Below, piece after piece: positions 1-8,998 of a DNA stretch of 64,000 nucleotides (its first letter is position 1; every line of letters begins with the position of its first letter). A program made the position numbers and the translations under genes. The stretch is from an uncultured Hormoscilla sp. (GTDB lineage Bacteria; Cyanobacteriota; Cyanobacteriia; Cyanobacteriales; Desertifilaceae): contig OZ001293.3 in the NCBI GenBank assembly GCA_963921275.4, positions 5,888,001 to 5,952,000 on the forward strand, given 5' to 3'. The notes beneath the pieces were generated by a model. The model made no database searches. It saw nothing but the letters and a program-made list of their open reading frames with translations, and was not told the DNA's origin.

Positions 1-241
1 AGATTTGCTTGCTCTAGCCTTGGGTATCTTTCCTAGCGGAGTCACCGGCTTAGGCTGCCAGTTATCCTGCATTTGAGTCCTCGCTTGGCACCACGGCGAT
101 GTTGCTCCGTAGCACTGAGGACCGGTGTCACCCCCGTACCTGGGGGAGGGGAATTTAACCCCCATGATGATCAGAGTTATCTGGCTAATGGAACCAGACC
201 CGACTTTCACCATTACTGGTTTACGCCGGAACGAATCGCAC
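1..241 (-). mobile_element. Group II intron, 5' part (domain I), inserted in recJ; runs off the window
   Basis: The minus strand begins GTGCGATTCGTT at 241 and is colinear with the 5' part of the complete copy at 43359-44229. Confidence 0.9.
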
Positions 242-628: not shown

Positions 629-1320
629 GGCTCTTCTCAATCTAGTATGCTAGATTGAGGCTAAAAGCACCAGGAAAGGAGACTACGCAAGCGAAAATTT
701 TCCAGATTTCTGAATCCATATCCCTTACGTTTGATTAACTTGAGACGGTTATTTATTCCTGACACAGTCCCTTGAGTTTTCCCCGATTCATTATCACCTA
801 CAATTTCTCCGAACCATCTAATAATTGTCTTCACACGAGAAAATCCTCTCTTGCCTCTAGGATCCAATCGAGGATTTGTAAGGTAGGATTTTCCGACTTT
901 TTGGACCTCTCATATATGTAGCTGATCCTCGGTACATTTTTCCCAATTTGGGAATTTTTTCTTGAATTTATTTCAGCTTAATTTCTTATTTTTTTTTTAA
1001 GCTTTCTTAATTTTTATGAGCTTTATTTTTATTTAATACTGATGATATTTATTTTTTTTCTGACTTTAAGTTTTTTAGCTTCATTCTTGATTTGTTTTCG
1101 ACAATTATCTAGCTCTTCATTTACTTGCTTAGTCAGGTGAAAATGGTCAGCTATAACTTCAGTATTAGGCATCAATTCTTCCACTAAACTTTGATACGGT
1201 TTCCACATACTCACTTCTTCAATACCATTCAACACCTCGGGACCCCATGATAGCAAGAATTCTCGCAGATATTCTTGTCGCCGAGACTTCACTATTTCCA
1301 GAAGTTTGATCGCCATACTA
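629..1320 (-). mobile_element. ISL3-family transposase remnant (frameshifted)
   Basis: ADHFHLTKQVNEELD and GINNRLKLIKRKGYGFRNLENFRLR motifs occur in broken frames. Confidence 0.85.
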
Positions 1321-1520: not shown

Positions 1521-2514
1521 TATTGCATTACGCAAATACATTAGGACATTCTCGAAAGGCAGCATCAATGCAGTCTTGGAAATTCTCAAATTCCTTTATC
1601 CTTTGTTTCATCCAATTCTTGAGAACAAACCACCAATGCTCTCTTTTATTAAGATCGGGAGAAGAGGTTGGTAAGTATAACAGCTCGCATCCAGCCGACT
1701 CAATTAGTTCCCTAACGAATATTGACTTATGAAAACTTGCATTTTCAATAATAACTACATTTCCCTCCTCAAGTTGAGAGATTAAACAGAATTCTACCCA
1801 AAATTCAAATAAATCCTTGTTACAACCTCCACTAAATACTAAAGGAGCAAAGACCTTATCTTCTCTCTGCGCCGCTATCCAACTGACTCTCTCGGTTCGT
1901 TTTCCGGATTTTATTGCGTAAAATCTTTCTCCTCGGATCGCAGTAATCATAGGGGTATTCTTCTCTGTTATCTATTCCTGCGATGTCTCCGGAGAGCGCT
2001 AATCGCACTACTCCTGAGACATCGCCTCATCAACGTATATTCTCTTATTTTTTTCGAGATTATCTAGTTTTCGCAAAAACTCTTGACGTTTTTCTTCATC
2101 TCTTTCCCGATATCCATAGGTCTTTTTTTTTCTGCTTATCCCTAACCAAAGCATGGTTCTACTAATATTTGGTTGCGTAACACAATATGGCCATCTCTTT
2201 TTGAGTTTTATCTCCATGCTCCTTTCTAAACGCACGAAACTTTTCTTGATTGTTGATTTTGGGTTGAGGATCTTTGCGACTGGCTGTTTTAGCCTGAAAA
2301 TTTCCAGTCTCAGCCTCTCTTTTCAACCAAAGGTCCAGAGTCTTCCTGCTAATATTGAGTTTTCGACATATGTTTGTTTTTCGTTCACCTCGTTTATAAG
2401 CTTCGATTGCCTTTTTCCGAAAATCATAGCTGTAAGGGGCCGGCATTATTATTCTCCTCGAATCGGTCTTCTTGTTTTACATTATACGTCCTAAGCTGCT
2501 TTGGTAGTGCTATA
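1521..2514 (-). mobile_element. IS630-family element, transposase fragmented
   Basis: MPAPYSYDFRKK HTH; YVDEA|GIDN split by a 44-nt palindromic insert; LYLPTSSPDLN. Imperfect TA-ended TIRs (TATTGCATTACGC.. / ..GGTAGTGCTATA). Confidence 0.85.
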
Positions 2515-2996
2515 TAAGAACTACTTTCTCCTGAGATTTCCTACTATCACCGACCTACGTCTGCGTATCCTAGGCATTACCCCAGACATTTGCTTCTTAG
2601 GCCATGCCTCCCCACCTGGACATACGCTTCACATCTGGTTGGTCCCTAGGGACAGTACCACGGGGGTTACTTCGTTCCCAAACGTCATATCTCGATGTCT
2701 TTAGGTCTCCTCTCTAAGCTGGCAGTTGTTTGTGTACAAAACTAATGAAAGCTAAGCATCAGTCCTAACTGCTTGCACTTTTGTGCCCGGTGTATCAGCC
2801 TTATTTCACCGGTTTTTTCTTACGACCCTTACAAGGATTTGCCTGTTCTAACCATGGACATCTTTCCTAGCGGCGTTACCTCCTCAGGGCTGGAAGCTAT
2901 CCTACATTTACCCTCGCTCAGCACCATGGTGATGTTGCTCCACAGCACCGATTTTTCCGGAACGGTGGGCCAATGTCACCCCTGTACATGGGGGAA

Positions 2997-5755
2997 ATTA
3001 GGGGTCGAGCTGGGAATCGCTCCCCAACCCTCCCATTCGGAACCTAAAGAGCGACTTTCATCGCACACGGCTACTGGGTATCAGGCCCGTTGTCATAGGT
3101 AGCCTTACTGGGGATTACTCCTGTTGGCCCTTACTACTTGTGATTTAGCCCCTTTCCTGGTTAACCAGTAACTCATTCCTCGATTACATTTGTAACGGGC
3201 TTATGATCTTTTGGGTTTACTCTCACCAGTAGTATCCTGATATCACCGACCCGCGTCTGCATATCCTGAGCATTACCCCAGGCTTTAGCTTCTCGGGCCA
3301 TCTCTCCCTTCATGCCTTGCGCTTCACATCTGACTGGTCCAGTAGGACAGAACACGAAGGGTTACTTCGTTCCCTGGTATCATTTCACGATGCCTTTAGG
3401 CCCCTACTTTTCCCCGGCAGTTATTTGGGTACAATGTTAGCCAATTCCCTAACTAACACTAACTGCATTAACTTTTGTTCCAGCGCATTAAGCCTTATTT
3501 CGCTGGTTGGGTTTAACGAGGTTTACATAGGTTCGCCTGTTCTAGCCATGGACATCATCGAGCGCGTCCTCACCGGTAAGGGCTACCAGTTATCCTACAT
3601 TTGAGTTCTCGCTTAGCACCACGACGATGTTATTTCGCAGCACCTCCAACCGGTGTTACCCCCGTACCTGGGGCTATGCCTTACTCACATATTTCTTAAC
3701 AATTGTAGCAACAGTCACGATTGGCAAATATGAGTCTATTGTTTTTTCAATAAAACCTATATATTATCAATAAGCCCGCCATTGAATTGAATATCTGGTG
3801 AAGAGTCAGCTCCTTTTTTGTTTGAGCACAAGTCTTTTGAGTAATTGTACCAGTTCACCACAAGAAATTCTTCTATAAAGTTGTGAACTGGCACGGTTCA
3901 TTCAGTTCTACTTCCGGCGCTCAATTGTCAGATAAGGACCGGACTATTGACGACCGTCCGGGCGAGAGAGCGAATTTACACTTATGGAGTTAAACATACT
4001 TTTTCATATTTTGGGACAGAGGCGAATCTAGAGAATCGCTTGAGCTAGAATTCAAGTATCAGCTATGTCATGCAAGCGTCGTAACCCTTGCCAAATAGTT
4101 TTCACCCCTGGTTCACCATCCCGTTTTCGTCCTAAAAAACCACCTAATTTAGCAATCCAATGAATACAAGTCTTTATTGTTGGCGTCGCCTCTAGTGGTG
4201 TCAAAGTTTTATTTATCGTGCAGTAAAGAGCTTGCTACTCATGGGTTTCTAAAATACTATCTGCTGGGGCCTCCGGGTTGTAACGAGCTTCATAAGTAAG
4301 CCACAATAATCGCCATGCCACGATTGTATAAGTGGCTAAAGCCCTTTCAATGCGATCTGCTGTTTCTAGTTGTAGTTGTTCTTTTCGACAACCACTTTTT
4401 AGGACATAATGATAACGTTCAATTAACCAACGATAGCTATACCAACGCAGGCACCACGTCATCAAAGCCAGTAATCGTCAGCGTCGTTAACAACAACCAG
4501 CTAACCCGGTCAACTCCAGAAGGTGGATGCTCTTCTTCTGCCAGAATTACTTGTATTTTAATTGGCTTTAATGATTTGTAGTGAATATGTGTTTTGGGTG
4601 GTTGAATCTCTACCGAAGTGCTACCCAGGGTTAAGGTTGCTTCGCGAGCCTTTCTCTCGGGATTTTTTGATAATTCTATCGTCACAACTCCTACGGGAGA
4701 AACTTTGTAGATAGCTGATTCTAATTTCTCTACTTCCTCTGAATCAACTGATTTTACAGAACGGTTCTAATAAGCGCGAATTAGAAGCATGCTCTGAATT
4801 CTCAGAGCGAGGCAAGGCCAAAAAATCATAAATATCTGCCTCCCGATCCGCCACTGTCACCACTGTAACATCTGATGGTATCACTGCTTCCGTTGCCGAT
4901 AGCGAGTCCAGCCACCGCTGGCTTTCTTTATCTTTTGTTTCTATGAATCTGTCGAGAATGCTTCTTGCCAATATCAGAAATATCCCGTGCCCTGCTGATT
5001 TAACACTCAAGGGCGGTACTCCTGTCCCACTGGTACAAAAAACCGAGTGAACTTTTAGTTCTCGACTGGTTCTACAATTCCATTTGCCCCATTCCTTTTT
5101 TACTGGGATGGTGCGTAAAATTTAGTTCGGTGGTGTCCTGAATTGCTAAAATCGTTTCATGTTGTTTGACTCGGGAGAGCGTACTTTGTTGGTGGCAATC
5201 GCGAATCGCTTCCGCTTGAATCTGTGGATTTGCCCAAAAGTCATTTGTGCTTGGGTCCCTGCCCAATCTCCACAAGCTTGTGGTACCGTAGCATTGGGTT
5301 GTTCTGCTAAATCTGATACAATTTTTACCAGTATGAATGTGGCGACGGCGATCGCCCAAATCAGCAGATTTTAGTTCTTCTGCGGCCCAAGACTTCATAT
5401 TTTTCTGTCCATGGATAATTTTTGCTCTTCGTGCTCTCTACAATATTAGCAACGCCAGAAGCAAGAGTCGTTTTATTTAATCATTATTTTACTTTTTAGC
5501 ACTGGCGAGGGTTCCGACAGCGCGTAGCGCATTTCGTATCGGACTATATATTAACTTAGTGGAAGTATATTGTTAACTTTTTTGAAGCAATTGTACTCAA
5601 ATCAAGACGGTGTAAGGATTTCAGATTGTTAAGAAATATGTGAGTAAAGCATAGGTACCTGGGGAGGGGGAATTAAACCCCCATGATTACCAGAGTTCCT
5701 AGTTTCCTAGGCCAGCGTTCCGTATATGACTACGTTAGGCTGGAACTCATCGCAC
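2997..5755 (-). mobile_element. Inner ORF-less group II intron (twintron), interrupted by IS4
   Basis: 5' GTGCGATGAGTT at 5755. Domain V (AGCCGTGTGCGATGAAAGTCGC) and domain VI end ..CTCGACCCCTAAT at 2997. EBS1 at 3443-3449 matches the flank GATTCCC. Confidence 0.92.
3674..5654 (-). mobile_element. IS4-family (IS50/Tn5-like) element, transposase frameshifted
   Basis: ~30-bp TIRs CTATGC(C/T)TTACTCACATATTTCTTAACAAT; 10-bp TSD GTACCTGGGG at 3664-3673 and 5655-5664; motifs IQDTTELNF, VADREADIY, YSYRWLIERYHYVLKSGC. Confidence 0.95.
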
Positions 5756-5840
5756 GGGAATCTAACCCTCATAACGTCTGAGTTGTGGGTTGCCCCACCC
5801 GACTTTCCTGATTTCTCAGTTACGCCGGAACGAATCGCAC

Positions 5841-7207
5841 TAACTTCCATAAAATAGCCGGGCGGGAAACTCCTAAAGCCGCTGCTGCTCGACGATAGTC
5901 ATCGGGAACGCTTTGAAACCCTTCTTGGGTAGATCGAATCAAAATCGGGAGTACCATACAGGCGAGGGTTAGCCCTCCTGAAAGAATCGAAAAACCCATC
6001 CCGAGGGTTTTACAAAAGAAGGCATTGCCAAATAATCCGAAGACAATTGAAGGAGTACCGGCTAATAGATTTAGACTCTGACTTACCCACCGCCCGAACC
6101 AACTAGACTTCTCCAAAATATAAATTTTGGCTATAATAAACTTTGAAAATTTAATTTAGTGTCAATAAGTATGAGTTTAGATTTAAACTAGACAGTTTCA
6201 ATGTTTCAATTGGTAAATTAACAAATGCTTTTGAGCAGCTAGTTTATAAGCTCAATATTATTGAGCTTCAAAGCGCAAGTCCGTTGGCTGAAAGGCAATC
6301 ACAGTGCGGTATCCCCCCTTTTGTGCGAGTTCGGTATCCCCTGGGTAGTGCGACTAGCGCTCCCAGGGGATACCGAAAGCTCCCGGGGGATACCGCCAAA
6401 GTTTCAGCTTTTTTCATAGCTCTCGCAGGTTAGAAGGGAGTACATCAGGAGTGAGTCAGTTATTGCTCCAAGTTGTAACCGAGAACTAATTTTCGTGTCA
6501 ATTTTAGGCATATTAGAATCTGGGTATTGCTCTGAAAAATTTGAGCTTAATTAATTCTACTTAGGGGCGCTTTTTTAACAGGAAATCCATCAAACCCTTA
6601 TGATTTCGTACAGGTAACATATGTGAGAATGTGAGGTGGGGCTTGAAACTCATAGCTAGCAAGGGTTTCATTCTCGGAGAGGTCTACTTTCTTTCACGGT
6701 AAATTCGGCCAATAAAATTGCCGTCCCCAATCGCTACCGTCATACAAACTCCCAGAATTAATCCCGTTGATACCAGAATGGGGGCAATTCCTCCCCCGCG
6801 ACCGGCTATCGGGTGATAAATTACCAATTTACCAGACTCCATCCCTGCCAGAATATATCGCTCAACAGCCACAATAACCTACATTTTGCACTACAAAATG
6901 TAGGATGTAATGATTACAAGAGCTTGGTGATGAAAGCGAACCTAAAAGCTCATATCCGTATAAATATTTATACGTTATGTTCGACAAATTGCCAGGCGGT
7001 GTCTCCGGAGGGGACACCGATATATTACGTATTACAAAATGTCGTGCAATGGCAATCGTATCGAGTAATTACATATTACTTATCATATTACAATTTGTCG
7101 TACGGAATATGGGACAATAATATTCCACTCACTCCCAGGACCACTGCCCAAATTAAACCGGTGGCGATCGCCTCTTTTTGATTAAGCTTAAACCTTACCT
7201 CAGTCAT
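5841..7207 (-). pseudogene. pstA: Phosphate ABC transporter permease PstA, shattered
   Basis: Fragments MTEVRF..GLIWAVV, LWLLSDIFWQG, AGRGGGIAPILVST, LAEFTVKES|WFGR..LAGTPSIVFGLFG..MVLPILIRST are separated by insertions. The 3' exon is absent. Confidence 0.85.
6105..6685. mobile_element. Non-autonomous IS derivative/MITE in pstA
   Basis: Ends AGACTTCTCC / GGAGAGGTCT with a 3-bp TSD ACT. Removing it restores the frame KESWFG. Confidence 0.75.
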
Positions 7208-7383
7208 AAATATGTCCTCGATTTATCACTTCGGCGATCGCCACCAGCAGCAGCACCATTGCCATTAATATCAGACCGCTGACAAATAAAGCCCCCTGAT
7301 GATTTCCCATAGCATATGCCATTTCTAGAGCAATATTTGCCGTCAAGGTCCGCACCGGTGCAAAAATATTGTTAGGGATTTTC
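7203..7383 (-). pseudogene. pstC: Phosphate ABC transporter permease PstC, C-terminal fragment
   Basis: IPNNIFAPVRTLTANIALEMAYAMGNHQGALFVSGLILM; its stop overlaps the pstA ATG. Confidence 0.85.
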
Positions 7384-7551: not shown

Positions 7552-7980
7552 TGGAAAACGTCTGATGGAGCTGACGACCATGAGATCCTTGCAGTTTAAG
7601 GATTTCTCCTTTTTGAGTATGATTTTGAGTATTTTGAATATGACGAAGACCTGAGAAATTATACTTATCTTGCCGCCGCGCAGATCTAGGCGATACGCCG
7701 AGCATAGAGGGAGCTAAGTACATACGCGCAGTTGCAGTACGTCACTTTTCAGTATCTAGAGTATATAAAGGGTCATAACCAGCGATCACTATCGTCACCT
7801 CGCAGCTGCTCGCCTCAGCACTGGCTTCACCTCATGCCCGATCGCCTTCGCCACCATGTTGCACTCTTCAGGTGTACAGAGTTGCTGTGTCCCTTGACAG
7901 GCATGAGACGATAGTATCTCATGACGTACAGCTGGTTGCTGTGTCTGGGGAACGGTACTTTTTTCTTCTGTGGGTAGCTA

Positions 7981-8877
7981 GGGCGTGTCATCAGTTAAGC
8001 CAAACAACAGTAGCAGCCAGGTAGATAGCACCCAAGAAATTCTGAGCCCTCTTATCGTAACGGGTGGCAATGGCTCGATATTGCTTGAGTTTGGCAAAAA
8101 AATTCTCAATCAAATGACGTGCTTTGTATAGATATTTGTCATAACGGCGTTGTTCTTTTCGATTGGATTTAGGCGGAATCACAGGTTCGCATTGCTGGGC
8201 TTCAAGACGTTTCAAAACCCGTTCGTCAGCATCAGAAGCTTTGTCTGCGAGTAACGCATCAGCCTTAATATTATCAAGTAACACATCAGCCCCTTCCAAA
8301 TCGTGAGCTTGACCGGCTGTTAAATGAAAACCCGTTGGGTTCCCCAATGCGTCACAGGTCGCGTGAATTTTGGTACTCAAACCCCCTTTACGGCGTCCGA
8401 TGGCTTGGTCGCAATCTTTTTTTTTTGAGCACCTGCACTATGTTGATGAGCCCTTTATATCGTGGCATCAATCATCGCATATTCGTTATCGGCATCGGAC
8501 GCAAGTACCTTGAATACTCTTTCCCATACCCCGGATTTTGACCACCTACTATGGCGCGTATGAATTACCCTCAAGTCCCCAAATCGCTCGGGTAAGTCCC
8601 GCCAAGGTATCCCAGCTCTATATCGATACAAGACAGCATAGACAAATAAGCGGTTATCCTTAGCTGTCCCCCCCACATAACCCTCCCGACCTGGCAATAG
8701 GTCCCTGATTCTCTCTCACTGGTCATCTCTTAAAGCATAGCGACGCATTTCTCAAATTCTCCTGCTCTAACCTTTACCCTCTTAGATCACACCAATATAT
8801 CCTGGTTGTCAACTCAATCATCTGGTTATATATTTTTGGTGGGGACCCATATCGTTAATCTAACTGATGACACGCCC
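7981..8877 (-). mobile_element. IS5-family element (two-ORF transposase, premature stops in orfA)
   Basis: TIR GGGCGTGTCATCAGTTA in CTAG context; PWRDLPERFG, ARHLIENFFAKLKQYRAIATRYDK; A-run slippery site near 8420. Confidence 0.92.
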
Positions 8878-8998
8878 TAGCTAGGTTTACCAACGATGTA
8901 AAGTTCTGACTTGCTACGGGTTAATGCTACGTACAGCAAGTTGTCTTCCTGCTCTTCCTGCCAAGGCTTGATGTTTCGCCAAGACATAGGCATGTCCC

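Follow-up and report, generated by a model that had tools for sequence, protein, structure and literature searches.

Homing of group II introns into other group II introns is a known habit and a recognised route of proliferation. In Thermosynechococcus elongatus, F3 introns (TeI3a-e) lie within F1 introns (TeI4a-e), and proteins of other introns were shown to mobilise them in trans (Mohr, Ghanem, Lambowitz 2010, PMC2882425); in Methanosarcina acetivorans repeated site-specific homing into group II introns has been described in terms of a perpetual homing site (PMC4424553). The described bacterial and archaeal intron-homing families aim at the protein gene or at domain IV. We describe here a family of group IIB introns without an open reading frame (ORF), family 4, in which the new feature is the landing site, a hairpin of domain I. 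One copy lies in the window, a stretch of 64,000 nucleotides (nt) from an uncultured Hormoscilla sp. (C1:5888001-5952000, where C1 is the main contig, OZ001293.3, of assembly GCA_963921275.4, 6.88 Mb without N in a 7.03-Mb genome, completeness 96.7%). It forms the inner intron of a nest in pstA: an insertion sequence (IS) of the IS4 family lies in the inner intron, which lies in an outer intron.

We consider it probable that family 4 inserts at one fixed domain I nucleotide of other ORF-less introns, that guide-directed retrohoming placed it there, and that the copy in the window is a relic. During retrohoming, its exon-binding sites (EBS1 GGGAAU, EBS2 AACCC and EBS3 A) would pair with the conserved hairpin GGGTT-NN-ATTCCC|T, and the base at -14 would be read by a further guide base, EBS2a, or possibly by a protein. 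The reverse transcriptase (RT) was likely borrowed from protein-coding introns of the genome, and the inner intron would have to splice first for its host to fold. The target is part of the ribozyme structure, a hairpin that some 350 copies from many subfamilies have in common. No account of this landing site was found in the literature searched, though subscription papers and supplements could hold one.

A fixed landing site in domain I

Intron starts were gathered from the whole genome by iterated BLAST with the 5′ ends of the inner and outer introns as queries. This yielded 402 5′ ends of one lineage, in 63 crude 5′-end clusters, with no RT in the 13 complete introns of that lineage longer than 1.5 kb. 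Another 55 5′ ends belong to a related lineage, 32 of them with an intact RT gene, and there are 93 RVT_1 matches genome-wide. Together these lineages make no fewer than 457 5′ ends of group II introns (402 + 55), with 376 motifs resembling domain V (DV); the published maximum is 101 group II introns per genome, by a counting method that differs from the present one (PMC8919778). Families F0 and F1 are very young, their majority sequence being matched exactly by 64/137 and 17/72 copies, respectively. At the 3′ boundary, conservation stops four bases past ACCCC (140 F0, 81 F1, 15 F2 and 16 F3 copies, 252 in total).

Fourteen starts share the 5′ end of the inner intron. Thirteen stand behind the motif GGGTTA-R-RTTCCC of another intron, all at the same nucleotide, and one lies in non-intron DNA behind GGGCAAGATTCCT, a poorer match. 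Eleven of the 13 hairpin-site copies begin 85-93 nt from the host start, and two are in hosts with a disrupted 5′ part. The hosts are ORF-less introns spanning 10 of the 63 clusters, with one further host whose 5′ end is broken, and insertion is precise and without duplication. An earlier note on the window, made from its letters alone, had proposed that this subfamily inserts into other introns and had named a majority of copies outside introns as the outcome that would speak against it; the genome-wide tabulation of flanks, with 13/14 copies in introns, bears the proposal out.

The landing site is the 3′ strand of a short domain I hairpin just ahead of the hairpin whose loop covaries with alpha′. 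These two would be hairpins Ia (landing) and Ib (alpha) of the IIB structure. The alpha loop itself was rejected as landing site, as covariation places alpha in the next hairpin; it is the IS4 duplication that sits on alpha, not the intron. Look-alike sites at the GFDFLG codons of RT genes were also rejected as the true target (0/16 copies there). The target hairpin (window 5756-5768 and its paralogues), especially the GGGTTCAATTCCC variant of F6/F7, may resemble a tRNA T-arm; no family 4 copy was found in a tRNA.

EBS1 and EBS2 were placed by alignment with families F0-F3, with exon consensus sequences from 17-148 insertions. Both track the exon consensus in F0-F3, so their positions are fixed independently of family 4. 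EBS3 was placed by covariation with position +1 in 286 parsed copies, of which 262 pair with G-U included and 228 by Watson-Crick rules (T-A 208, T-G 34, A-T 15, G-C 5, other 24); a first candidate, after GTACCC, did not covary with +1, and the base before AG does. A 6-bp EBS2 was replaced by the 5-bp pairing of PMC8643678, which also describes a further pair, required for mobility, that joins position -14 to the base lying two upstream of EBS2. In the inner intron this base is U. The pairing expected of a group IIB intron is found: EBS1 GGGAAU with ATTCCC 6/6, as the earlier note had proposed, EBS2 5/5, and EBS3 A with T. Over family 4, EBS1 pairs 6/6 in 14/14 copies (G-U counted), and the 5-bp intron-binding site 2 (IBS2) GGGTT is perfect in 13. 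The EBS1 hairpin occurs in 12 copies in the genome, all in family 4. The +1 base is T in 9/9 hairpin-site copies with an intact 3′ junction versus 143/345 empty sites (p = 4e-4), and for three of the filled hosts there is an empty twin, 99.1-99.7% identical, that joins exactly at ATTCCC|T or GTTCCC|T.

Filled and empty sites, and the origin of the guides

Occupancy was counted over 359 hairpin sites, which are near-identical and differ mainly at -14 and +1. With A at -14, eight sites are filled (seven by family 4, one by a second family, F31), one is empty with T at +1 and two are empty with C; with G at -14, six are filled, 142 are empty with T and 200 with C. Among sites with T at +1, 8/9 are thus filled with A at -14 versus 6/148 with G (Fisher 3e-9). 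There are 202 empty C-sites, and no C occurs at +1 among filled sites where +1 is readable. The large families that are not hit have C at +1 (F0, 148 copies) or G at -14 (F1-F3); timing alone may be the reason for F1-F3, as F0/F1 are young and the 994-nt sub-lineage of family 4 differs at 1-7 bases, yet -14 explains the pattern more simply. The youth of F0/F1 may also contribute. Over 271 insertions of F0-F3 themselves, the -14 base is A in 136, C in 84, T in 43 and G in 8. At -14, A is preferred and G avoided, and pairing is not strict.

No insertion is found in the target hairpin carried by family 4 itself (0/14 copies in a family member), where -14 is G and +1 is C. The earlier note had counted the inner intron among its own targets, and this part of its proposal is not supported; EBS3 A needs T. 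Introns of the RT-bearing lineage lack the motif (0/55 5′ ends). Outside introns, some 62 sites where +1 is T and the pairing is looser are empty (70 were listed, eight of which are intron hairpins).

Several points weigh against the reading of family 4 as a retrohoming family with these guides. Position +1 is unreadable in 4/13 hairpin-site copies, three having lost their 3′ ends by recombination and one lacking a few exon bases. Six of the 13 insertions are at -14G sites, and 127/271 F0-F3 insertions have C or T at -14, so the -14 rule is a preference only. Kinship of copies and hosts inflates the p-values, the -14A hosts coming from about four lineages. All family representatives viewed have U as EBS2a, which leaves no covariation to demonstrate; since selection for A-14/A-15 in TeI3c is reported as linked to the protein (PMC2882425), the reader of -14 may be EBS2a or the protein. 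The inner DV gives no match to Rfam RF00029 even at E ≤ 1, and the inner and IS junctions are unbridged among the contig matches listed from four public runs. The sequences themselves show the site, the three pairings, precise insertion, the preference for -14A and +1T, and absence from the family's own copies and from RT introns; retrohoming, the borrowed RT, the reading of -14 by EBS2a and the need for the inner intron to splice first are predictions from them.

F31 has two copies, at the same landing site. Its sole complete copy has EBS1 GAGAAU (5/6), an EBS2 region AAACC, EBS3 A, T at +1, and stems of the outer-intron type. In a domain I tree of 46 rows (at most two per cluster, one tree search, mosaic sequences), F31 groups with the outer intron and far from family 4, with 100/100 support for each clade. 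From its one complete copy, this suggests separate retargeting of F31 to the landing site.

Family 4 may be a parasite in the sense of a selected specialisation, or may have guides that match by accident. The mechanism would be the same and only the word 'parasite' would change. An accidental match to a motif present about 350 times is quite possible: with 359 such sites, a guide set of this kind would land mostly in introns, one copy does lie in non-intron DNA, and the commonest state combines -14G with +1C (200/359), so that self-avoidance needs no selection. The family may also be young and local. The intron lineage is present in four same-genus genomes (71-77% identity), where neither the junction nor the guide pattern was found (EBS1 hairpin pattern 0/4). 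The junction pattern had one match in 60 relatives, which is not an intron, and none in 400 genomes of the phylum; repeats are often unassembled, so these negatives mean not found rather than absent. A looser pattern in five genomes gave IS and chance matches (one locus inspected). A scan of contig collections gave at least 117 stretches, with DV downstream (by regular expression) in none among the matches listed, which is uninformative, and none of 10 metagenome matches had DV downstream.

Against an accident stand the guides of F31, carried in its own stems on an outer-intron backbone and aimed at the same site, and the guide module of family 4, nearly constant in a mosaic family in which sub-lineages are about 85% alike and the divergence of 3′ halves is about 15%. 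Selection is favoured by the presence of a second family, of separate derivation, at this site, though that family has two copies only. We therefore offer as a tentative possibility that two separately evolved protein-less families were selected as second-order parasites, with EBS1, EBS2 and EBS3 each retuned to a hairpin that the other protein-less introns must conserve; the intron bloom would supply harmless landing pads, and the parasites and the largest host family would be protected by +1C and -14G. If so, the EBS2a-IBS2a and EBS3 rules of ORF-less introns could be read, genome-wide and in nature, from the pattern of filled and empty sites. With 359 near-identical sites and occupancy from 8/9 down to none, recognition rules and host resistance are directly testable.

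It is improbable that the nested copies descend from one or two ancestral twintrons that were multiplied by DNA duplication, by recombination or through gene conversion. The mosaic structure of family 4, with recombined 3′ parts in three copies, is in its favour, as are two twintrons in tandem whose hosts are 98.8% identical. That same pair, however, holds inner introns of two sub-lineages (the 754 and 994 types), and the hosts belong to different subfamilies. Young groups differ at 1-7 of 994 bases or at 1 of 754, and the near-identical 994-nt sub-lineage (1-7 differences) sits with precise ends in three different, unrelated hosts and at the sole non-intron site. The three filled hosts with near-identical empty twins largely refute duplication, and guide-directed retrohoming remains the preferred reading.

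Anatomy and decay of the nest in pstA

Table 1. Features of the nest (window coordinates)
Feature	Position	Strand	Remark
IS630-family element that cuts off the outer intron	1521..2516	-	
Rest of the outer intron, from the alpha hairpin into the first part of domain IV, where it is truncated	2517..2996	-	
Inner intron, 3′ part: rest of domain I, domains II-VI, end CCCCTAAT, no ORF	2997..3673	-	
Inner DV (broken-stem variant) and domain VI with bulged A	2997..3072	-	fold; no Rfam match
Inner EBS3 A, pairs with +1 T	3409	-	covariation with +1, 286 copies
Inner EBS1 GGGAAU, in a stem-loop	3444..3449	-	
Inner EBS2 AACCC (3509-3513) and candidate EBS2a U (3515)	3509..3515	-	alignment versus exon consensus; position rule of PMC8643678
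IS4 target duplication, copy 2; complete alpha hairpin remains downstream of the IS	3664..3673	.	
IS4-family element, 1981 bp, 30-bp inverted repeats, broken transposase	3674..5654	-	
First copy of the IS4 target duplication, which covers the alpha loop and 5′ arm of the inner alpha hairpin	5655..5664	.	
Inner ORF-less intron (family 4), 5′ part, with its own unused target hairpin (G at -14, C at +1)	5665..5755	-	
Target read by the inner intron: IBS1 ATTCCC (5756-5761), IBS2 GGGTT (5764-5768), A at -14 (5769)	5756..5769	-	+1 T at 2996
Initial 85 nt of the outer group IIB intron, from GTGCG up to the 3′ strand of the hairpin preceding the alpha hairpin	5756..5840	-	
pstA pseudogene piece adjoining the outer intron, residues 117-206 of a relative's 305-aa frame	5841..6110	-	intact in relatives
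pstA pseudogene, upstream piece, frameshifted, past an insertion of ~585 bp (6103-6687)	6686..6877	-	
pstA N-terminus and last 60 pstC codons, past an insertion of ~236 bp (6878-7113)	7115..7382	-	

As the earlier note had it, removal of the IS with one repeat restores the inner intron, 768 nt from 5755 to 2997, collinear end to end with eight paralogues. The ends are those of a group IIB intron (GTGCG at 5755 and TAAT at 2997, for GUGYG/AY), folding gives the bulged A in domain VI (DVI), and the 3′ boundary obeys the ACCCC plus four bases rule of the large families. The alpha-alpha′ pairing is GGTAC/GTACC, and across families 8/9 distinct combinations are fully paired. The inner DV has the AGC triad and the GAAA loop on a stem that folds as broken; DV is canonical in eight other family 4 copies, and the broken-stem kind is also found in multi-copy F2 and F6. 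Once 2997-5755 is removed, domain I of the outer intron is back in register, and the inner intron lies precisely within the outer one, as in a twintron. The outer intron follows a Leu codon of pstA (TIGR00974, E 1e-28), cut at 5841; its 5′ end is 5840 and its EBS1 pairs 6/6 with the pstA exon. An uninterrupted pstA, 89-92% identical, is present in three same-genus genomes.

The IS4 element has terminal inverted repeats of 30 bp with one mismatch and is flanked by the 10-bp direct repeat GTACCTGGGG. The IS4 family makes target duplications of 9-12 bp, and a second copy of this type has one of 9 bp. Three ORF pieces match the IS4 transposase model NF033590 of NCBIfam with scores under the cut-off, and the gene is not intact (frameshifts and stops). 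A C run lies ~10-14 bases off at most of the 22 ends of this IS4 type, and the only other paired copy lies in a palindrome made of a C run and a G run. The alpha hairpin has this form too, and insertion there fits the element's own preference. A contig of one run joining 3663 to 5655 was considered as an excision of the IS and rejected; most likely it is the IS-free paralogue at C1:5243199 (99.7% over 289 nt).

It is very unlikely that the nest is a misassembly of repeats. Every layer is indeed a repeat, and the inner junctions are unbridged among the short-contig matches listed. Contigs of the four runs (at most three samples of one study, from which the assembly itself may derive) span all 30 bins of the stretch and bridge the junction of pstA and the outer intron. 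Within the 6.88-Mb contig without N, the 10-bp duplication and inverted repeats are exact, both intron junctions are in exact register, the inner copy has private sequence (111-139 differences from other full-length copies), and the identical junction recurs at 12 other loci.

The earlier note had described a four-level nest in pstA and taken the outer intron as restored by the removal of 2997-5755. The nesting and its coordinates stand, and domains I-III and the start of IV are present; the implied working nest does not, as the outer intron breaks off early in domain IV at the IS630 element and its host is a pseudogene. No outer DV/DVI or domain VI end was found within 3.5 kb past the truncation, nor the outer domains V/VI anywhere in the genome. 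By blastn, a relative's pst region matches only three pieces in the genome, all within the window; tblastn of the whole genome with the relative's proteins found no PstA past residue 207 and no cognate PstB, and the remainder of the window pstC beyond its last 60 codons was not found. A paralogous pstC-pstA-pstB cluster is intact at C1:6589590-6592251. The outer intron of a functional twintron is complete; here DV/DVI and the pstA 3′ exon were not found in the genome and pstA is broken, so splicing cannot yield PstA. The outer intron would have entered pstA first, then the inner intron the outer one, and IS4 last the alpha hairpin of the inner intron, after which IS630 with an adjacent deletion may have removed the outer DV/DVI, the 3′ half of pstA, and pstB. 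The copy in this window is likely a relic, and the nest likely has no function. That sequential splicing with excision or tolerance of the IS still gives PstA is scarcely credible, the complete alpha hairpin left by the duplication (with an inner fold formally intact save for the 2-kb insertion) and the outer EBS1 match being outweighed by the missing outer DV/DVI, pstA 3′ exon and cognate pstB, by two further insertions and a frameshift in pstA and by the intact paralogous cluster, which refute it unless the assembly (96.7% complete) lacks the missing segment.

An ISL3 remnant (window 629-1308) and an IS of roughly 70 copies with DDE_Tnp_1 (window 7978-8880) flank the locus. A complete ORF-less intron of 793 nt with canonical DV lies at window 1-241 and upstream (C1:5887449-5888241). 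Its own hairpin site is empty (G at -14, C at +1), and its exons join in frame to a putatively RecJ-like product with a GDYDADG motif.

Nesting recurs elsewhere in the genome. Intact family 4 copies include those at C1:6622111 and 1540347, intact twintrons those at C1:1540259 and 4581401, and family 4 copies also occur near 4.58 Mb and 1.43 Mb of C1. An antisense F2 intron in the first hairpin of the family 4 copy at C1:5193398 makes a three-intron nest. Five F0 copies lie 767-768 nt within another F0 at one site (C1:1326652, 4742825, 5180973, 6030547 and 6411229), and three more directly behind another F0, at 870-871 nt. In reverse nesting, an F6 intron at C1:3238112 lies within sequence equal to the IS4 terminal repeat of this nest. 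The broken-stem DV is common to near-identical multi-copy families at different guide-matching sites, F2 (C1:310702 and 14 others), F6 (eight copies) and F3, and the GAAA loop is also missing in 12 F2 copies. A tolerant fold, trans-complementation or later conversion are candidate explanations for the spread of these families.

Comparison with described nested introns

Decayed nested introns are also described from plant mitochondria, as 'zombie' twintrons (Zumkeller et al. 2020, PMC7049729). One of them lies in domain I of its host, but their outer introns still splice, whereas the outer intron here is truncated. In Trichodesmium erythraeum, Tr.e.I8 in Tr.e.I7 (Pfreundt and Hess 2015, PMC4649490) also is an inner intron in domain I of its host in a protein gene. 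That case is a single locus with an ORF in both introns, inserted near theta 154 nt in, and splices in vivo; family 4 is multi-copy, inserts at 85-93 nt, and at the present locus is part of a broken nest.

The introns of M. acetivorans (Dai and Zimmerly 2003; reviewed in PMC4424553) are reported to target the ORFs of related introns and to form nests of up to five, whereas family 4 targets domain I, reaches a depth of two and shows no self-insertion. Closest are the F3 introns of T. elongatus (PMC2882425), which like family 4 are ORF-less IIB introns with their own EBS set, found at one conserved site through independent events. F3 introns enter RT-encoding hosts at a domain IV site flanked by two ATGs, and neither that site nor an RT-encoding host is found for family 4, which takes a domain I hairpin. 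Unlike F3, family 4 enters ORF-less hosts of many subfamilies, leaves aside RT introns, which lack the motif (0/55), and shares its site with a second family.

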